NCBI GenBank assembly: GCA_963722075.1
Contig: CAVRJM010000001.1
Location: 160,001 to 224,000 of the forward strand
DNA: 64,000 bases
Direction of reading: 5' to 3'
Source of the DNA: Candidatus Babeliales bacterium
Lineage (GTDB): Bacteria > Babelota > Babeliae > Babelales > JANWKD01
Part shown: positions 54,746-64,000 of the stretch, one piece after another
Layout: each line of letters begins with the position of its first letter
Position numbering within the stretch: position 1 is the first letter of the stretch
Translations under genes and position numbers: made by a program
The notes under the pieces: generated by a model
The model's input: only the letters and a program-made list of their open reading frames with translations
Databases searched by the model: none
Told to the model about the DNA's origin: nothing

Positions 54746-56251
54746 ATGAAAAAAGATGTAACACCGCAAGAGCTGATCGATTTAGCTGCGGATGAACATA
54801 TTTCCCAAGAACATACCGTTCGTTTGCAAAAAGTAATTGAATTGCAGAAATTAGGGGTTAACCCCTGGCCTGAAGCCGAACCAGTGACTGCCGAATGCCA
54901 CCAAGTAATTACTCAATATTCTGAGAATGCAACCCAAGAATATAAGATTGCCGGGCGTTTGCTTACCATTCGCGGGCATGGCAAAACGGTTTTTGCAACG
55001 ATTCAAGATAGCTCTGGGAAAGTGCAGATTTACCTCAAAAAAGAAGAGCTTGGCGAACAACAAATTGATCTATTTCAACGCTTTATTGATATTGGCGATA
55101 TTATTTGGGTAACTGGTACCTCATTTACCACCAAAACGGGAGAAATCACACTCAAGGTGACTTCGTTTAAGCTGCTGAGCAAATGTTTATACCCATTGCC
55201 TGAAAAATTTCATGGCTTAACTGATATTGAAACGAAATATCGGCAACGATACCTAGATTTAATTACCAATCAAATTTCTCGTTCTAAATTTATAAAACGA
55301 TCCTTATTGATAGCTTCTCTACGAGCATTTTTAAATAAACATGGTTTTATGGAAGTTGAAACACCGATGTTGCACCCGATAGCTGGCGGTGCGGCAGCGC
55401 GTCCTTTTATTACGCATCACAATGCATTAAGTAGTGATTTTTATTTGCGCATTGCTCCAGAACTATATTTAAAAAGATTGGTAGTGGGTGGCTTTGAGCG
55501 GGTGTATGAAATTAATAGAAACTTCAGAAATGAAGGAATTTCTACGCGCCATAATCCAGAATTTACCATGCTTGAATTTTATATGGCTAATCATGATTAT
55601 ATTTTCATCATGGATTTTGTAGAAAGCTTACTCAAAACGATTATTCGCACCGTTGATGAAGCCGGTAAGATTCCTTTTGGTGAGCATACTTTAGATTTTG
55701 GGGTGCCATTTGCTAAAATGAGCATCAAAGAAGCAGTGATGAAGTATGGAAAGTTTACTGAAGCTGATCTTACTGAAGATCATATTGATTCAATATTGCA
55801 TGATCAAGCAATCGTACTTGAAAATAAAGAAGCATCGCTGGGGCAAAAAATATTCGCACTTTTTGAAAAAATTGTAGAGCCGCAACTTATTCAACCTACC
55901 TTTATTACCCATTTTCCTATTGAAATTTCCCCCTTATCAAAACGTGATGCCAACAATCCTGAATACGCAGCTCGTTTTGAACTTTTTATTGGTGGCATGG
56001 AAATTGCTAATGGTTTTAATGAATTAAATGATCCCTTTGATCAAGCAGAACGCTTTAAGGAACAATTAAAAGCTCACGCGGCTGGTGATCCTGAAGCCCA
56101 TCAATATGATGCTGATTATATTTTGGCATTAGAATATGGCTTAGTACCAACCGTTGGGGTGGGGATTGGTATTGATCGATTAACTATGCTTGCTACTAAT
56201 ACTACTTCTATTAAAGATGTTATTCTATTTCCGACATTAAAGAAAAAGTGA
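54746..56251 (+). CDS. lysS: Lysine-tRNA ligase (class II)
   Basis: YRQRYLDL, LRIAPELYLK, FRNEGIS, HNPEFT, GIGIDRL. Confidence 0.98.
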   Translation: MKKDVTPQELIDLAADEHISQEHTVRLQKVIELQKLGVNPWPEAEPVTAECHQVITQYSENATQEYKIAGRLLTIRGHGKTVFATIQDSSGKVQIYLKKEELGEQQIDLFQRFIDIGDIIWVTGTSFTTKTGEITLKVTSFKLLSKCLYPLPEKFHGLTDIETKYRQRYLDLITNQISRSKFIKRSLLIASLRAFLNKHGFMEVETPMLHPIAGGAAARPFITHHNALSSDFYLRIAPELYLKRLVVGGFERVYEINRNFRNEGISTRHNPEFTMLEFYMANHDYIFIMDFVESLLKTIIRTVDEAGKIPFGEHTLDFGVPFAKMSIKEAVMKYGKFTEADLTEDHIDSILHDQAIVLENKEASLGQKIFALFEKIVEPQLIQPTFITHFPIEISPLSKRDANNPEYAARFELFIGGMEIANGFNELNDPFDQAERFKEQLKAHAAGDPEAHQYDADYILALEYGLVPTVGVGIGIDRLTMLATNTTSIKDVILFPTLKKK

Positions 56252-56259
56252 CAATCTTA

Positions 56260-57102
56260 TTATTCAGATTCTTCTTCTAGTTCTTCATTACACAGCAAAG
56301 AACTTATAGAACTTATGCCAACTTGTAATGCTTGATTTGAATCTTGAACTGGTGGGTGGTATTTGGTGATATGATTTTGTAACTCACTAGGACGTCGAAA
56401 GCTTTTCAAACAGATAGAGCATCGGTGCGGTTTGCCATCATGGGAATTCTTAATATGAGCGCTCAGTTCTTTTTTAGCGTTAAAAGCCTGATGGCATGTC
56501 CCATCTGGGCAAGTAAGTTGTAATGTTGATTTATGCTGATCAGATATATGACTTTTAAGGGTATTCTCCGTAGAGAATATTTTGAAGCATTGTGCGCAAG
56601 TGTAGTTTGATTTATTATGAATCTCTTGATGCATTTTTAACTTATAAGGACGTGGAAATCTTTTCAAGCAGATAGAGCATTGGTGTGCTTTGCCATCGTG
56701 AGCGCTCTTAATATGTTCGCTACGTTCTTTTTTAGTGGCAAAAGTCTTACGGCATTTTATATCTGGACAAGTAAACTCTACTCGATCTCGTTTTCTTTTA
56801 TGAGAATTGGTATTAGCATTACCATCATTATTAATAGCAGCGTTTTGATTATCCAAAGGATTGTTATCAATGCTTGTAGTAGAATCTTCATTTTCTTCTT
56901 CTTCAACTAATGGTTCTTTATCTATTAAACCATCATTTATTAAAGCATCATAATCTTCGGTTTCAAACGGAATTAAAAGGGTGTCGTCTTCTTCCATAAA
57001 TTCAGCCCAAGAAGAAATAGGTGAATTTTGATCATGCTCCATTGGCTGTGCTAGAAAAGGAAATAAGGCGATAATAAGTATAAAAAAGATAGGTAATCTC
57101 AT
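56260..57102 (-). CDS. Secreted protein with five C2H2 zinc fingers
   Basis: Signal peptide, acidic region, HKRKR, five Cx2-4Cx12Hx3-4H fingers with HDGKPH-type linkers. Confidence 0.9.
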   Translation of the reverse strand: MRLPIFFILIIALFPFLAQPMEHDQNSPISSWAEFMEEDDTLLIPFETEDYDALINDGLIDKEPLVEEEENEDSTTSIDNNPLDNQNAAINNDGNANTNSHKRKRDRVEFTCPDIKCRKTFATKKERSEHIKSAHDGKAHQCSICLKRFPRPYKLKMHQEIHNKSNYTCAQCFKIFSTENTLKSHISDQHKSTLQLTCPDGTCHQAFNAKKELSAHIKNSHDGKPHRCSICLKSFRRPSELQNHITKYHPPVQDSNQALQVGISSISSLLCNEELEEESE

Positions 57103-57239
57103 TTATTCTCCTTGTTAACTTTTTTACTAATTTTTTTAATAAATGGCTTAAATTGAATCTATTTTTATTCTATAAAATAGGTATATAGTTATTATTTTAT
57201 AGAAAATTATCAATTTGTCAATAAAATATATGGTTTTGA

Positions 57240-57431
57240 CAGGGCAAATGCCCTAAAAATATCGGATTCAAAAGGCTTTAATAGAATGCTGGATTGCTTC
57301 GATAAACTCGCAACGACGTTCTTTTGTTTTCGGCCGCGTCGTCGTCCCGAGCGTAGCGTGGGGATCCAGGCAAAAGTTGATAACCTTTAAATTTTTGGCT
57401 TAAATACTGTACTTTAAATGCGTTTGCCCTG
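57240..57431. mobile_element. MITE-like element with 12-bp terminal inverted repeats enclosing a REP pair
   Basis: cagggcaaatgc ... gcgtttgccctg (11/12 match); internal ctggattgcttcg..gcaacgacg and cgtcgtcccgag..ggatccag. Confidence 0.55.
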
Positions 57432-57580
57432 GTTTTTCTATTTTAAAGGGGGGATTATAGACCTTCTATTTTAGCTATAATTGAAAGAAAAATAAGATTA
57501 AAATACCTTGACTTATTCAAATAGAAAATATTATTATTATAATTAGATAAAATATTGGATAATTGAATTGGGGAAATGGT

Positions 57581-59542
57581 ATGAAGAAGCTCTTATTTTC
57601 TTGGCTTATGGCCAGTTGTTGTATGGTGATAATGCAGGTATATACAGGAGCACAGCCAACACGTTCAAAAACAGTTCCAAAAAGCAATACTATAGAAGAT
57701 ACGGGTGAGCCATTTACTCAAAGAATACAAGAGGTCAAAAAAAAGTTAGAAGCACAAAGCGCCGAACCCCAACCATTTTCAAAAGAAAGTTATGCAAAAT
57801 TAAAAGATGATTTAACAACAACGTTTAAGTCAATCGCTAAAAACGTACTTATGAGACAGTTGTATGAACGCACGTGGAATCGGTTAAAAGATCTTGCTAA
57901 CCGTATGCCTACCACTGGTGGCACCAATGTGAGGGTTGATACTGCCTTATCAGCTAATGAAAGATTATTTTTAAGTAAGCGAATGGAAACGGTACGAAAT
58001 GCATTGGAGCAATTTTTAGATACTGATTTATCAGATAGAAGAAAAATAACTGATAATGATTTAAAAATAGCATTTGTGGCAAGTGGCGGGGGCTATCGTG
58101 CTATGATTCTTACGATTGGTTACTTATCTGCGCTGCAGCAAATGGGCTTATATGATGCACTTACGTATGTTTCAACCTTATCAGGATCAAGCTGGGCGTT
58201 AGCACCGATGATTTCGCTTAATTATACACCGCAACATTATAAAGAAAAATTATTAAACTCGATTCAAAATTTAAATCTATTGGCAATTCAAAACGTTCTT
58301 TTTAAATCATTGACCAACATAAATAATCTGGTAGATACCATTATTGTGCCCAAATATTTATATAATCAGCCAATACGCTCCATTGATTTTTATGGATTTA
58401 TGTTAGCGCAAACATTATTAGGAAATGATGGGTATAAATATTATTTATCCGATCAATGGAAGATTCTTAATGATTCTAATAATGCAGGAAAAATACCTTT
58501 TCCTCTTTATTCAGCAATCTCAGTGAGTAAGAAAAAGGACAATACGTATGCTCTGGATTGGTATGAATTTGGTCCGAGCGAAGTGCGCGTGGGTTTCCCG
58601 ACGGAAGATAAAAAAGTTGCTTCATTCAATATACCTACGTATGAATTTGGTAGTGAATTTAATGCAGGAAAGCCTGTTAGAAGTGTCCCTGAAGTAATAA
58701 CGCCATACTATCTAGGGCCTGAACAAATGTTAGGGTACTATTTAGGAATTTTTGGATCTGTCTATTCAATCAATTTTAATAAGATTAATCAATTTGTTTC
58801 TGGTGGAATGGCACAATTATCAAGCGGCGGATTTTCACTCGATTCTGCAAAGAATTATATTGCGATTAGCGCCTTTAACGCGCTTCAAAATTTTAGTAAA
58901 AAAACTACGGAGAACATTTTACCAGCACAAGTATTTAACTTCTTAAAAGGATATGAAGAAGCTCCCGATTATTTACAAACAGCAGACTACCTCACCATGG
59001 GTGATGCGAGCATTGATTATAACATTCCAGCGCGCCCCGTATTATGGCCGTTACGTAATGTAAAAGTATTAATTATTGGCGATTCTTCTTCCAACATAGA
59101 ATCAGCAACCGAATTAAAGCGTTTTTTTGAAGATGCATATAAATTGTATGGCTATCAATATACACGTATTGATACGGGCGATAATAAAACCATTCGTTTT
59201 TATAAAGATTTAAAAAATAGCAAAGCACCACGAGTTGTTTATGTTAATTTTGTAAAAGATATAGATTTAATAGAGCAAGCTAAAATAAAAAATAAAGAAC
59301 TGCGAGATTTAATTGAAGTTACGCGCTTAGAACAATTTGATCCAGTCGCCTGCATTCAAACTAAACCCAATAATTTTTGTGACGCCTTTAATTTTAACTA
59401 TTCCAAAACAGATTATGAACAACTCATTGGTATTTCAGAATTCAACATGAAAGTTAATATAGAGAATATTAAACGCTTTTTAATTGATGAAATGGTAAAA
59501 AATCTGGAAGACGTTAATTTCCCCGTTTTTGGCCAACCGTAA
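57581..59542 (+). CDS. cPLA2/lysophospholipase (PLA2_B-type catalytic domain), secreted
   Basis: ASGGGYRAM oxyanion motif, YVSTLSGSSW nucleophile, PFPLY, WYEFGPSE, late DASIDYNIP...RNVKVLIIGD. Confidence 0.85.
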   Translation: MKKLLFSWLMASCCMVIMQVYTGAQPTRSKTVPKSNTIEDTGEPFTQRIQEVKKKLEAQSAEPQPFSKESYAKLKDDLTTTFKSIAKNVLMRQLYERTWNRLKDLANRMPTTGGTNVRVDTALSANERLFLSKRMETVRNALEQFLDTDLSDRRKITDNDLKIAFVASGGGYRAMILTIGYLSALQQMGLYDALTYVSTLSGSSWALAPMISLNYTPQHYKEKLLNSIQNLNLLAIQNVLFKSLTNINNLVDTIIVPKYLYNQPIRSIDFYGFMLAQTLLGNDGYKYYLSDQWKILNDSNNAGKIPFPLYSAISVSKKKDNTYALDWYEFGPSEVRVGFPTEDKKVASFNIPTYEFGSEFNAGKPVRSVPEVITPYYLGPEQMLGYYLGIFGSVYSINFNKINQFVSGGMAQLSSGGFSLDSAKNYIAISAFNALQNFSKKTTENILPAQVFNFLKGYEEAPDYLQTADYLTMGDASIDYNIPARPVLWPLRNVKVLIIGDSSSNIESATELKRFFEDAYKLYGYQYTRIDTGDNKTIRFYKDLKNSKAPRVVYVNFVKDIDLIEQAKIKNKELRDLIEVTRLEQFDPVACIQTKPNNFCDAFNFNYSKTDYEQLIGISEFNMKVNIENIKRFLIDEMVKNLEDVNFPVFGQP

Positions 59543-59543
59543 A

Positions 59544-60188
59544 TTATTGATTGGTTGAATTCTCAGATGATGATGATGTTTCTTCCCCTTCTTGCATAAT
59601 GTCTTTACCGATTTGTGCATCTTGTTCTATTTCTAAATGTTGTTTGCTCTTCTTATGCGCCGGAATATGCTTATTTAATTTAGATTGAGACTCGTAAGCT
59701 TTTGAACAATATTCGCATTTATAAGGCTTCCCATTATGTTGAATTTTCATATGATTAGAGTATTCATAATTTTTTTCGGCAAAAGTTGTACCACAGCCTG
59801 GAAAAGGACAAGTATATGGCTCTTGGATACTATGATCTCTTTGTAAGTGATAAATTAGCTCTTTCTGTTGATTGAAAATTTTACCACATTCTTCAATGGT
59901 ACATTTATATTCTGATATAGAACGTTTTCTTTTACGAGAACTACTAGTTGTAGTTGATGAAGTAGTAGATGAGTTAGTAAGATTTTCTGTAGTTTCCTGG
60001 GTAGTATTTGTAGTATCTATAGAATTCTGTTTTTTGGAATGAAATTTTTTCATATGTGTATTATATGTTTTTTCACTCACAAATTTTGCTTGACATGGTT
60101 TACAATAGCGGTAACTACTTGGATCTCGATGGTTTCTTGCCCGATGCTTTCTTAATGCGTCCGCGGTTGTGGATGCAGAATTAGCCAT
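59544..60188 (-). CDS. C2H2 zinc-finger protein (four fingers), N-terminally truncated
   Basis: Begins with a half finger (LRKHRARNH), SSRKRKRS, HNGKPY linker; no signal peptide. Confidence 0.8.
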   Translation of the reverse strand: MANSASTTADALRKHRARNHRDPSSYRYCKPCQAKFVSEKTYNTHMKKFHSKKQNSIDTTNTTQETTENLTNSSTTSSTTTSSSRKRKRSISEYKCTIEECGKIFNQQKELIYHLQRDHSIQEPYTCPFPGCGTTFAEKNYEYSNHMKIQHNGKPYKCEYCSKAYESQSKLNKHIPAHKKSKQHLEIEQDAQIGKDIMQEGEETSSSSENSTNQ

Positions 60189-60289
60189 TAATAACCTATT
60201 TCTTACAATTTTAACCGGAGAATTTAGGTTAACTAACGTAAATTATATTTTATTCAGTTCTTTCAATATCAGGCCAAATGGGTAACTTT

Positions 60290-61711
60290 TTAGTTGTTTT
60301 TACTATTGAGCGTCAATAATAATCCAATTAAATCAGTTTCCAAATCTTGATATTGGGTGTTATTGTTGGGGTTATGGTCAGGCTGAGGTCCTTCTTCTTC
60401 TTCTTCTTCGCGGTTTACAACTGATGAAATGGCGGGCGGCATATTTGATAGATTGTGCGCATATGAGTCCACAATTTGAGCAGCATTATTACTCGTTGTT
60501 GATGATACCGTAGCTACATCAGGAACTATTGCAAATGGTGTTTGTTCTTCTTGCTGTATCATCTGATCAGGCCTGTTAGTAGATGCTGCATTACGATCAT
60601 TATAGTTGCTGATATGCTTTTGGAGATCCTCGAATTTTTTAGGGCATTTTGGTACATGTTTATCAAAAATTCTTTTGCTCACATATACAATTGAGCATAT
60701 CGGACATGTATATTTAACTTTGTTGTGAGTCTTTATATGCCGGGTTAAGTCACAGTTGCGTTTAAAAGACTTTCCGCAATCTTCATACTGACATATAAGA
60801 GATTTATCTTGCAATTGAGTAACATTTTCTGTTTGGTTATTTTCTTCTTCTTCTTCTGGTTCTTCCGAATCATAAGATTGGTTACTATTGTTATCTTTCT
60901 TATGATATCTCGATTTATGTTTATATAACGCCGCACGAGTAGGACATTTTGTTGAGCAAATTTCACAAAAAAATCCAGGTTTAGTATGTGTTTCTATATG
61001 TGCATCTAATTGATTAGTACGTTTAAAGGACATATTGCAACCTTTATAGTGACATTTATATCGTTTTTCTTGAACTTGAGTAGCATTTTGTACCGATTGT
61101 GTTGATCGTTTTCTTTTTCGGGAACTGCCGGCTGTTGTATTTATATCATTGTTAGAAGATTCTGGTAATTTACTCTGTTCTTGGGTTGATAAATTTGTAA
61201 GAATGTTAGCATCTTGTTGGTGATGAAGTATGGTATGGATTTCTAAAATATGGGGAAACCGTGATGTTGTCCTGCACCCTTTTAGTGAACATTTAAGACG
61301 TTCTGGTGATGCCATATCTTTATGGTGATTCCTACAATGAGTAGAATAAGTAATAGAATTTTCAAATTTATCGCTGCAATATACACATATAATTGGTAAT
61401 TTTATATGGAATTGCAAATGGCGTCTTAGAAGATTTTCATCATCATCAGAGTATTTTTCCCCGCAACTAGGAATGGCACAGGTAGCGGTATTTTCAGAAC
61501 GATTTATATGATTTTCTTTCATATGCGCTAATAGATCACGATATTTCATTGGAGCTTCGGTGCAACCAGGGCATTGAAATGAATTAACAAATGATTGTGC
61601 TACTTCTGGTTGAGAAACAGCGGTTTGGGTAGGTGGATTAGGATCCTCCATTGCCCTAAAGGTAGTGGGTACTAAACTGATAATAAGTAAAAAAAAGCTC
61701 CATTTATTCAT
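60290..61711 (-). CDS. Secreted protein with eight C2H2/C2HC zinc fingers
   Basis: Signal ending FRA-ME, SSRKRKRS, CQYEDCGKSFKRNCDLTRHIKTH. Confidence 0.9.
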   Translation of the reverse strand: MNKWSFFLLIISLVPTTFRAMEDPNPPTQTAVSQPEVAQSFVNSFQCPGCTEAPMKYRDLLAHMKENHINRSENTATCAIPSCGEKYSDDDENLLRRHLQFHIKLPIICVYCSDKFENSITYSTHCRNHHKDMASPERLKCSLKGCRTTSRFPHILEIHTILHHQQDANILTNLSTQEQSKLPESSNNDINTTAGSSRKRKRSTQSVQNATQVQEKRYKCHYKGCNMSFKRTNQLDAHIETHTKPGFFCEICSTKCPTRAALYKHKSRYHKKDNNSNQSYDSEEPEEEEENNQTENVTQLQDKSLICQYEDCGKSFKRNCDLTRHIKTHNKVKYTCPICSIVYVSKRIFDKHVPKCPKKFEDLQKHISNYNDRNAASTNRPDQMIQQEEQTPFAIVPDVATVSSTTSNNAAQIVDSYAHNLSNMPPAISSVVNREEEEEEGPQPDHNPNNNTQYQDLETDLIGLLLTLNSKNN

Positions 61712-61799
61712 AAAGATATTCCTTTTTAAATAAAATCTATTATATACTATAATTTTATATTAAATTTCCAATTTGTCAATAAAAAAAGCATTAAGCTAT

Positions 61800-64000
61800 C
61801 TATTTTGTTGTAGGATTGAGAATTCGTAATAATTGTAATAACGCTTCTCGCTGGTCTTCTTCGGTTTCCTGTTCCTGGTAACTTGCAGCCGACGAGTTGG
61901 TATGTAAAATATTTGATGGTTGTTGTGCATATAAGCCTATTATTTGGGCAGTATTACTTGTTGTTAATGTTGTTGTATTAGGATTTGTTGCAACTATATG
62001 TTCTTCTTGTTGTTCTGTGCGATTAGTTGTGTTGGTAGATGCTGCACCAATATCATGATAGTAGCTAAGATGTCTGTCTAAAAAATCCTGAAAGCTATAT
62101 GTATAGTTACCTGAGCATAAATGGCATGTAAATTGACCTTTATGATCATCGGCATGTTTATTGCGGCAATGGTGCTGGTAAGATTTATAAGTGACAAACG
62201 GTTTTAAACAAGCTGAACTGTATGCGCAATGGATATCTTCATTAATATGAGTTAGCATATGTGTTTTTATCCATTCGGTATTCGTTTCTATATTACAATT
62301 TTTGATAGTACAAATACATTTTTTATCTGAATTGGGCGCATCGATTGTATGTTCTTGTACCATATGGTTTATTAAATCTGGAAGTTTCTTAGTAACATGA
62401 CAATTTGGACACTTAAATATGTTACACTTCCATCTATCGGTTTGGTGATTATTGTGGTTAACGTCTATGGTTACTGTATTATTGGATTGTTGCTCAGGCC
62501 GTTGAGCTACTGTTGTTTCTTCTTCTTCAGGTTCTTCAGAGCGATTGATCAACTGTGTGGGTATTTCTCGAATACTTGCAGGGATAACATAATGGTTCTT
62601 ATGATATCGTGCCAAATGTATTATTAGTGAGGGAAGAAAGTTGAACGATATGTGGCATTCTTTATTAGGGCATATACGTTTTGTTTTCTCAGTGGCATGA
62701 ATTTTTTTAACATGGTTATTATGATTATCGAATGTGTGAAGTTCTTTTGAGCAGTACATGCAAGTAAAATTTTCTTTAATGTGTGTTTTCAAATGTTGCT
62801 TAATACTTCTCATTAATTGGTCACTATCATTGTTTACAAAGGTTTTATTACATTTGTTGCATTTATATTGTCCTTCAGATTTAATAGTGTGATCTTGTAA
62901 CATATGCTCTACTAATGCATAATATTTCATAGGGTTTTGTAAACATCCTGTGCAGGGGCAACTGAATAAGATAAAATAATGATAATCGTAGTACTCCTGC
63001 GGTGTATGGTAATAGGTAGAGCCCACTTGCGCGGGATCTAATGTTTTTGCAAAAAATGTCTTATAATTAGTATCATGATACCGTGCCATATGTATTATTA
63101 AAAAAGGAAGAAATGTTAACTTTAGGTTGCAATTTTGTTCAGGACATTGAAACGTGTTACTTTTAATGGCATGGTTATATTTACAATGTTTATAATACGT
63201 ACTTAATTTATAAAATTCTTCTGAGCAATACATACAAATGAAATGTTCGTTAATATATGTTTTCAGATGTTGTTTAGTATCTTTTATTAATTGCTTCTCA
63301 TTATTGTTTTCAATTGTTGTATGACATTTGTTGCACGTATATTGTCCTTCAGATTTAGTAGTATGATCTTGTAACATATGCTTTACCAATGCATAATATT
63401 TCATATTTTTGCTTGGGCATTTCAAGGGACAATCAAATGAAATAGAAAAATGATGGTCGTAATATTCTTGTGCTATTTTTTCTTCAAGATGAGTGGTGTT
63501 ATCCGTAGCAGACATCGTATTAGTAGTTATTACCGGTGGTGTTTGCTCTTCTTGCTGTGCTCTGGGATTAGATATATTAATAGGTGTTATGCTACGTTGT
63601 GCCACATCTTGATAGCTGCCTCTTTGTAAAGAGTCAGGAAACGTAAATGTATCGTTACTGCTTGGGCATTCAAATGTGTTAGACATACATCGATTAATTG
63701 TGGAATCACTACTATTATCAGTAACCATGGGGGTTAATGCGTTATTGTGTTGTTCAGCTTGCTCGGCTATTTCTTCAAGTTGGGTAAAAAAGTCATTTAA
63801 TTCTCCAAAGTCATCCATATTATAAATATCGTCATCTGCAAATATTGATTGAGGAGGCGTTAGTATGGTGGTATTGATATCATTATCAATTGATTCTTGC
63901 TGGTTATTAGTTGTACCATGACTCGTATTAGTTGAAGCATTTTGTATAGCTTCTGTTGGACGTTTTCTTTTACGGTAATTGTTTGTTCTAGTGGTGTTAT
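61800..64000 (-). CDS. Large C2H2 zinc-finger protein (about 12 fingers); start lies beyond the window
   Basis: Frame is open from 63998 (NTTRTNNYRKRKRP...DDDIYN-MDDF); three tandem four-finger modules. Confidence 0.88.
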   Translation of the reverse strand, partial: NTTRTNNYRKRKRPTEAIQNASTNTSHGTTNNQQESIDNDINTTILTPPQSIFADDDIYNMDDFGELNDFFTQLEEIAEQAEQHNNALTPMVTDNSSDSTINRCMSNTFECPSSNDTFTFPDSLQRGSYQDVAQRSITPINISNPRAQQEEQTPPVITTNTMSATDNTTHLEEKIAQEYYDHHFSISFDCPLKCPSKNMKYYALVKHMLQDHTTKSEGQYTCNKCHTTIENNNEKQLIKDTKQHLKTYINEHFICMYCSEEFYKLSTYYKHCKYNHAIKSNTFQCPEQNCNLKLTFLPFLIIHMARYHDTNYKTFFAKTLDPAQVGSTYYHTPQEYYDYHYFILFSCPCTGCLQNPMKYYALVEHMLQDHTIKSEGQYKCNKCNKTFVNNDSDQLMRSIKQHLKTHIKENFTCMYCSKELHTFDNHNNHVKKIHATEKTKRICPNKECHISFNFLPSLIIHLARYHKNHYVIPASIREIPTQLINRSEEPEEEETTVAQRPEQQSNNTVTIDVNHNNHQTDRWKCNIFKCPNCHVTKKLPDLINHMVQEHTIDAPNSDKKCICTIKNCNIETNTEWIKTHMLTHINEDIHCAYSSACLKPFVTYKSYQHHCRNKHADDHKGQFTCHLCSGNYTYSFQDFLDRHLSYYHDIGAASTNTTNRTEQQEEHIVATNPNTTTLTTSNTAQIIGLYAQQPSNILHTNSSAASYQEQETEEDQREALLQLLRILNPTTK

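Follow-up and report, generated by a model that had tools for sequence, protein, structure and literature searches.

A cluster of C2H2 zinc-finger genes in a Babelota genome encodes candidate secreted mimics of eukaryotic transcription factors

The genome of a Candidatus Babelota (Dependentiae) bacterium (1.47 Mb; 99.2% complete, 2% contaminated) carries six clustered minus-strand genes for C2H2 zinc-finger proteins between lysS and recJ. Four of them, here called genes A to D, lie wholly or partly in the 64,000-base stretch that was analyzed (the window, C1:160001-224000 of a 1,418,565-base contig). We propose, from sequence, that these genes encode exported transcription-factor mimics that would enter the nucleus of a protist host, bind host DNA and alter transcription, and we put the probability of this reading at roughly 0.65. 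The idea of exported DNA-binding effectors was first raised in an earlier note on this DNA and is now supported beyond it, because the same architecture recurs in 29 genomes of the phylum and because the contact residues of fingers across the phylum are under positive selection.

The cluster genes encode proteins of 280, 214, 473, 783, about 355 and about 211 amino acids, the last two sitting outside the window. Within the window, the four minus-strand open reading frames (ORFs) reported earlier were recovered at 56260-57102, 59544-60188, 60290-61711 and from 61800 to beyond the window end. Gene A (56260..57102, 280 residues) encodes a predicted signal peptide (residues ~1-20), an acidic, Asn-rich linker, a KRKR basic run, five C2H2 fingers and an acidic tail. 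The KRKR run (56788..56799, minus strand), a predicted nuclear localisation signal, lies 7 residues ahead of finger 1, and fingers 1-2 and 4-5 form an internal duplicate. Gene B (59544..60188, 214 residues) encodes four fingers and an RKRKR sequence (59922..59936, minus strand). It is probably a 5'-truncated paralogue, because it lacks both a signal peptide and a copy of the promoter described below and starts with an apparent half finger. Gene C (60290..61711, 473 residues) has a predicted signal peptide, a degenerate four-finger module at residues 47-164, an RKRKR run (61106..61120, minus strand) and two near-canonical finger pairs, as well as acidic tracts and a Leu-rich helix at its C-terminus. 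Gene D (61800..64000 and beyond, 783 residues) starts at C1:224151, 151 bases past the window end; its predicted signal peptide is followed by an RKRKR sequence (63960..63974, minus strand), an acidic region, the four-finger module in triplicate and a C-terminal acidic stretch with a Leu-rich helix. The four basic motifs named in the earlier note are thus all present, and its finger counts of 5, 4, 8 and about 12 also held, with the refinements that the last finger of gene C is of C2HC type and that 11 of the 12 fingers of gene D are intact, Tyr replacing the second His in the defective one. A seventh finger gene is isolated about 1 Mb from the cluster (C1:1250846-1251439, minus strand) and encodes 197 residues with two fingers and a signal-peptide-like start.

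The cluster arose by tandem duplication that carried the promoter and the signal peptide along. The top four promoter-like sites in the 11.5-kb region (score 11/12) all precede finger genes, are copies of one another and are sigma70-like. The site ahead of gene A (TTGACA-16-TAAAAT, 57194..57221, minus strand) is common to genes C and D and to the next gene outside the window. That of gene C lies at 61752..61779 on the minus strand (TTGACA-16-TAAAAT), and over 73 bp its promoter stretch matches that ahead of gene D at 98.6% identity. Promoter-like sites in the region as a whole were no more numerous than in shuffled sequences (55 vs 57.5). Genes C and D also share their first 26 residues, a signal-peptide-like start, without a difference, and the DNA surrounding the RKRKR run of gene C is homologous to that flanking the run of gene D. 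Four cluster genes end with an acidic stretch and a Leu-rich helix, a feature shared by descent. Comparisons of paralogues over the finger regions gave ratios of nonsynonymous to synonymous change (dN/dS) of 0.42-0.56, and the window's paralogues are under purifying selection.

The finger genes genuinely belong to the Babelota bacterium. Signs of eukaryotic contamination had been named among the findings that would refute the proposal, and by contig, flanks, codon use and promoters the genes are bacterial. Their codon use falls between the 9th and 89th percentiles of the genome, with a native GC content at third codon positions. It is very improbable that they are eukaryotic contamination, a mis-assembly or recently acquired, non-functional host DNA. 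Their ORFs are free of introns, lie on a 1.42-Mb contig and have bacterial promoter-like sites, the order of lysS, a phospholipase gene and recJ is conserved in relatives, paralogue dN/dS is 0.4-0.6, and the same architecture occurs in the 29 genomes. Public contigs from four DNA runs of two studies also contain short, near-identical stretches of both finger and core genes. These pieces measure at most 1028 bases and no public contig from the four runs bridges the cluster, so that the stretch as a whole is unspanned, which is a point for the contamination explanation. Contamination was rejected on the conserved locus order, promoter-like sites, native codon use and paralogue dN/dS, and the explanation as a whole is largely refuted.

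A beta-beta-alpha fold is predicted for the fingers. The AlphaFold model of gene A contains five such units, with a predicted local distance difference test score (pLDDT) of 76-94 across the fingers and a predicted template modelling score (pTM) of 0.35, and is bead-like. Its sequence has 71 PDB matches, led by ZFP568, CTCF and TFIIIA. Pfam supports the classical nature of the fingers in part: zf-C2H2 (PF00096) is matched in genes A, B and C (E = 7e-19, 6e-12 and 3e-6) and not in gene D, which matches only zf-Di19 (3e-10) and zf-H2C2_2 (0.001) and whose fingers are not classical by Pfam. As to the proposed likeness of the linkers to those of Kruppel, DGKAHQ, DGKPHR and NGKPYK keep the His-to-Cys spacing, and the exact TGEKPY is absent from the window. 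Genes A, B and C have near-canonical fingers after the basic run, those of gene C reading, for example, R-N-Q-A and R-C-D-R at helix positions -1, 2, 3 and 6. Neither the window proteins nor the relatives scanned gave a Pfam match to a KRAB, SCAN or BTB domain.

Signal peptides, called by our own heuristic and not by SignalP, are predicted in five of the six cluster genes, the exception being the 214-residue gene B. Within the window they are predicted for genes A, C and D; the earlier note had reported them for the two genes with visible intact starts. Every one of the six cluster genes contains a four-residue basic run. The runs are present as claimed. As evidence for nuclear entry, the loose nuclear localisation consensus K(K/R)x(K/R) is weak: 159 of the genome's 527 other signal-peptide proteins contain it too, and it was rejected as too common. 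A run of four basic residues is found in 6 of the 7 finger proteins, compared with 33 of the 527 others, a pattern that was chosen post hoc and counted over paralogues that are not independent.

Finger genes recur across the phylum. PF00096 is matched in 81 of 261 phylum genomes (59 above cut-off; 12 of 21 families) vs 1 of 14 controls, and PF13465 in 75 of 261 (23 above cut-off) vs 0 of 14. From the 81 genomes, a sample of 98 multi-finger ORFs with a closed 5' end was drawn, covering 29 genomes. Arrays in the family range from 2 to 16 fingers, and tandem clusters are common, with eight genes each in G013 and G024, six in G056 and five each in G055 and G255. Linkers are seven residues long in 351 of 404 short cases, and 158 of the 404 are of the TGEKPY type. 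Over 542 fingers, the favored helix residues are Q, T, R or S at -1, N, D or H at +3 and R, K or T at +6. The signal-peptide heuristic is passed by 85 of the 98 ORFs, with at least one in each of the 29 genomes; the controls that passed were 2 of 39 viral-contig finger ORFs, 37 of 605 segments from inside proteins and, with a stricter rule for the start, none of 164 other finger proteins.

The basic motif is likewise enriched in this sample. K(K/R)x(K/R) precedes finger 1 in 49 of the 98 ORFs (18 genomes), whereas composition-preserving shuffles gave a mean of 7.3 and a maximum of 17. Outside the fingers its density is 4.2 per 1000 residues vs 1.2 in 142 neighbouring signal-peptide proteins, a comparison made on genomes other than that of the window. 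Of 84 ORFs, 70 have a net acidic region ahead of the fingers; BLAST paired the pre-finger regions 84 times within a genome and never across genomes. Judged from these sequences, the layout of the family is kept while the N-terminal sequence is not. One genome, G024, encodes two adjacent proteins of about 980 residues (L052:2536-8387) that combine a signal-peptide-like start, a basic motif and C2H2 fingers with ankyrin repeats and an F-box, and these fusions point to action inside a eukaryotic cell. A family-wide repression helix of Sin3/LxxLL type was unsupported (15 of 98 ORFs; shuffle mean 9.4, maximum 18). As a separate observation, a Met, mostly as Met-Glu, follows the predicted signal peptide in 62 of 85 finger proteins; the count is 222 of 527 for the other signal-peptide proteins and 105 of 654 for proteins without a signal peptide. 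Mature effectors would possibly begin like newly made eukaryotic proteins, or the residue may mark an export class. Met-Glu starts may suit N-terminal acetylation by the host.

Across the phylum sample, the base-contact residues diversify under positive selection. Fingers were paired within genomes by DNA identity outside the recognition helix, and change was scored inside it by a simple count (544 fingers, 26 genomes). At positions -1, 2, 3 and 6, dN/dS was 2.02 (genome bootstrap 1.36-3.13; 44 pairs) at the strictest threshold and 2.19 (1.69-2.76; 79 pairs) at the next, and fell to 1.86 (107 pairs) and 1.48 (168 pairs) when the threshold let in older pairs. The values for helix positions outside the contacts were 1.29, 1.16, 1.01 and 0.91 across the same four thresholds, and 0.72-1.10 was obtained in a neutral simulation that included the local AT bias. 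Among the finger pairs the structural Phe and Leu are nearly unchanged. Expansions of vertebrate genes encoding poly-zinc-finger (poly-ZF) proteins display the same pattern, which the passages seen interpret as selection for new DNA specificity (PMC2604467).

Selection of this kind shows shifting specificity, not the target, and also fits an unlikely alternative, in which the proteins are exported, sequence-specific readers of another nucleic acid: host RNA in the manner of TFIIIA, the DNA of transposons or mitochondria, or that of giant viruses co-infecting the host. Besides ZFP568 and CTCF, TFIIIA is among the matches of gene A, and half of the family has no basic motif before finger 1. TGEKPY linkers accompany duplex DNA binding and count against such targets, as does a basic motif that is strongly enriched and positioned; the acidic N-terminal regions of the 70 ORFs fit transcription factors. 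A mitochondrial target would suit Chromulinavorax, described in the part of the source seen as replicating while enveloped by the host mitochondrion (PMC6561590).

The degenerate four-finger module is a distinct element. It occurs once in gene C, once in the 355-residue gene and three times in gene D, and it has long spacings and hydrophobic, Pro-containing helices such as FLPFLII. AlphaFold gave a confident model of the gene C module (residues 1-125, pTM 0.56), and its fold neighbours were taken from Foldseek, where the best matches, CTCF, WT1 and YY1, had E values of about 1e-4 and template modelling scores of at most 0.25. No close relative of the module was found in 260 other genomes, nor among 1.84 billion representative proteins beyond the three of this genome; weak matches (E 8.5e-8 or worse) occur in 10 of the 260 genomes, none of them in the genome of the same genus. 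Because its helices are hydrophobic and contain Pro, the module fits protein binding better, and it probably binds proteins rather than DNA. It is also the best fit to a second, comparably unlikely alternative, that the fingers in general are protein-interaction repeats like the secreted ankyrins of the phylum and would, as decoys or adaptors, engage zinc-finger partners of the host or bring in ubiquitin ligases. The higher confidence of the module model relative to that of gene A (pTM 0.56 vs 0.35), the lack of close relatives among the 1.84 billion proteins and the finger-ankyrin-F-box fusions lend this alternative further weight. Against it, diversification peaks at -1, 2, 3 and 6 and is not surface-wide, canonical linkers are kept phylum-wide, and genes A and C also have near-canonical fingers directly after the basic run.

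If the proteins act as transcription-factor mimics, they would be exported by the Sec pathway, with cleavage before a Met, and would cross the outer membrane through a type II-like secretin system or in vesicles. The KRKR run would then mediate importin-dependent nuclear entry, and the near-canonical fingers would bind the major groove of DNA. For activation, repression or competition with host factors, the proteins may finally use their acidic tracts, the Leu-rich helix at the C-terminus and the degenerate module. The genome looks host-dependent, with three ATP/ADP translocase genes, 69 ankyrin matches and two secretins, and agrees with what is published on the phylum. Members of the phylum are described, in the portions of the papers available, as intracellular protist parasites with two gspD copies and type II as the sole secretion system, and Chromulinavorax as carrying signal peptides on 44% of its genes (PMC4776705, PMC4378268, PMC6561590).

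A quite improbable explanation is that the proteins stay with the bacterium, as periplasmic or surface zinc-binding or adhesive proteins or as Ros/MucR-like regulators of its own genes. Ros/MucR proteins, which have a single atypical finger, are cytoplasmic regulators. Window proteins gave no Pfam match to the Ros/MucR domain at E up to 0.1, and a signal peptide takes a protein away from the bacterial chromosome. Retention would also leave the basic-motif enrichment and the contact-site selection unexplained, and finger genes are absent from 180 of the 261 genomes, including three of the four family relatives. On the other side, Sec signals reach the periplasm only, gene B lacks such a signal, and C2H2 regulators are known from bacteria (cited in the part of PMC12491435 seen).

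Several results weigh against host-nuclear transcription-factor mimicry. A Sec signal delivers a protein to the periplasm only, and the 99%-complete genome has no match to FHIPEP, the type III export gate, and none to VirB4. One of the window's four genes, gene B, is without a signal peptide. The heuristic is also passed by 626 of the 1287 genes of the genome, and because about half of the genes score positive, a signal peptide alone says little on destination. Within the family, 49 of 98 ORFs are without the basic motif before finger 1, and no common activation or repression motif was found across the 98. In the window, whose fingers are more degenerate, gene D misses PF00096, the fingers are without an exact TGEKPY linker, and the four-finger module has the long spacings and hydrophobic helices already described. 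The sampled loci were the best Pfam scorers, which favors canonical arrays. As to selection, position -2 is also fast-changing, the difference in dN/dS between contact and non-contact positions includes zero at the strictest threshold, and only one of the 168 pairs comes from the window's genome, so the signal comes from relatives; the window genome's own duplicates have a dN/dS of 0.4-0.6 with a slight excess at contact sites.

By analogy, the closest functional precedent for such mimics is MoHTR1, MoHTR2 and MoHTR3 of Magnaporthe oryzae, which are likewise parasite-secreted proteins with a signal peptide, a nuclear localisation signal and C2H2 fingers; as far as the text seen goes, these effectors reach host nuclei, and MoHTR1 and MoHTR2 bind promoter elements and repress defence genes (PMC10189765). 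The likeness lies in the finger fold and the shared parts. The MoHTR proteins are fungal and small, with a C-terminal finger domain, whereas the present proteins are bacterial, have 2-16 fingers across the family and are encoded in tandem gene clusters. The specificity of transcription activator-like (TAL) effectors (TALEs) is set by modular repeats. A zinc-finger analogue of TAL effectors had been suggested for this cluster, and the comparison would hold for function and not for delivery, the type III export gate not having been found. TAL effectors (AvrBs3/PthA) and HsvG/HsvB are bacterial, carry nuclear localisation signals and mimic host transcription factors, according to the passages seen (PMC7819608). 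They differ in being type III-injected into plant hosts and in their repeat fold, the present proteins having Sec-type signals in a genome without FHIPEP; Pfam and NCBIfam gave no match to TAL repeats.

Vertebrate poly-ZF and KRAB-ZF genes resemble the family in their C-x2/4-C-x12-H-x3-H units, seven-residue TGEKPY linkers, tandem clusters and lineage-specific expansion, and, for the phylum sample though not shown for the window's cluster alone, in positive selection at -1, 3 and 6 (parts of PMC2604467). In contrast, the present proteins have no KRAB, SCAN or BTB domain, carry a signal peptide, are bacterial and would act on the genome of another organism. The secreted ankyrin, F-box and further eukaryote-like proteins of Babelota come from the same phylum and share signal peptides, lineage-specific expansion and presumed type II export; they carry protein-interaction or ubiquitin-system domains, and C2H2 arrays are unmentioned in the passages and word counts obtained from those papers (PMC4378268, PMC6561590, PMC4776705). 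Kistimonas and other Endozoicomonadaceae are host-associated bacteria with many Kruppel-type arrays, reported in the text seen as a domain enrichment with no mechanism, and most of the Endozoicomonadaceae ORFs have no Sec-type signal (PMC12491435). Ros/MucR proteins are bacterial and of Cys2His2 type (cited in the portion seen of PMC12491435), and differ by the missing Pfam match. On the proposed reading, the finger family would be a transcription-factor-mimicking kind of effector; it lies outside the TALE, KRAB-ZF and Ros/MucR families.

In the partial texts covered, with supplements and subscription journals outside coverage, no paper was found to report C2H2 arrays as secreted proteins of Babelota or as nucleomodulins of bacteria. 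In the available text, neither 'zinc' nor 'C2H2' occurs in PMC4378268, PMC4776705 or PMC11521996, and 'zinc' is absent from PMC12172432 and occurs once in PMC6561590. In the parts seen of two nucleomodulin reviews, 'zinc finger' refers to a host protein or to the MYND motif, and sequence-specific readers of host DNA are rare among bacterial effectors, namely TALEs, HsvG/B and Ehrlichia TRPs, none of those in the two reviews being built on the main DNA-binding fold of eukaryotes (PMC7819608, PMC7232420). If the proposal is true, this phylum, which is widespread and has barely been cultured, exerts transcriptional control over its protist hosts. Target motifs are predictable because the C2H2 recognition code is partly known, and they may help identify hosts that are unknown. 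The family also supplies a natural collection of diversified finger arrays free of introns, and it offers a test case for how proteins with Sec signals get into a host nucleus from a bacterium that has only a type II-like system.

Beyond the phylum, an exact pattern of the linker and the next Cys pair matched at least 176 stretches in the GTDB collection, of which 80 were listed. Among these 80 listed, going by title, 63 are from Endozoicomonadaceae (many overlapping, from few genomes), four are contigs of Babelota orders, two are from Pseudomonas and two from Bacteroidota; several are on short contigs and may be contamination. One genus among the listed matches was assigned to Endozoicomonadaceae by us. 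The Endozoicomonadaceae arrays (L112-L143, L153, L177, L180-L186) are large, tandem and of Kruppel type and include those of the intranuclear parasite Ca. Endonucleobacter. Most ORFs of this bacterial family start directly with fingers; a Sec-type signal is present in some Endonucleobacter ORFs and in both Bacteroidota ORFs. The words 'zinc' and 'finger' have zero occurrences in the main text of the Ca. Endonucleobacter paper, as far as it was available. Two Pseudomonas RHS-core proteins (L151:170-2929, plus strand; L175:2411-5119, minus strand), which we take to be Tc C-subunit-like, end in five or six Kruppel-type fingers.

We tentatively suggest, at slightly less than even odds, a cross-domain arms race resembling that of KRAB-ZF genes, in which tandem genes for secreted, many-fingered Babelota proteins, reshuffled and positively selected at the residues that read bases, would be a programmable set of transcription-factor mimics directed at protist genomes and the same weapon would have been separately adopted by Endozoicomonadaceae, including intranuclear parasites, by a Bacteroidota lineage and as C-terminal cargo of Pseudomonas RHS proteins. 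No donor can be named for the fingers. A single-protein search gave three other proteins, the one named being from an insect, and a profile search with the module returned, after its own three proteins, generic multi-finger proteins, of which four of the eight looked up were named, all animal or fungal. An Atlas search gave viral and generic C2H2 clusters. Viral contigs (L071-L107; ten named giant-virus bins) carry multi-finger arrays, mostly with C-terminal extensions and with almost no signal peptides, and may form a reservoir of arrays exchanged with Babelota that live in the same hosts.

The cluster is flanked by the bacterial core gene lysS (54746..56251, plus strand), identified by Pfam, genome context and relatives, and by recJ at C1:226424. 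A phospholipase B/cPLA2-like gene (57563..59542, plus strand; PF01735 by Pfam), eukaryote-like and with a signal-peptide-like start, lies between genes A and B. It is an older resident of the locus, outside the finger family. Four relatives (G108-G111) carry it after lysS and have no finger genes there, and it was rejected as a partner of the finger genes on this basis. In G109 and G110, of the same family, lysS, the phospholipase gene and recJ follow in order with nothing intervening; in G111 the same two slots are occupied by other short genes, and G108 has no finger gene there. Because these slots are empty or filled by other short genes in relatives, the finger genes are insertions at variable slots. 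In G108 (L041), lysS, the phospholipase gene and sod are each broken into two ORFs, probably by frameshift errors in the assembly. The phospholipase is a candidate secreted lipase for host membranes, and its named distant matches come from a fish and a fungus.

Rfam identified only two tRNAs, both distant from the cluster. A dispersed repeat of about 170 bp lies at window positions ~57240-57430 and has 81 other full or partial BLAST matches on the genome, with copies in relatives too. It folds no better than shuffled sequences and resembles miniature inverted-repeat transposable elements or repetitive extragenic palindromic elements.

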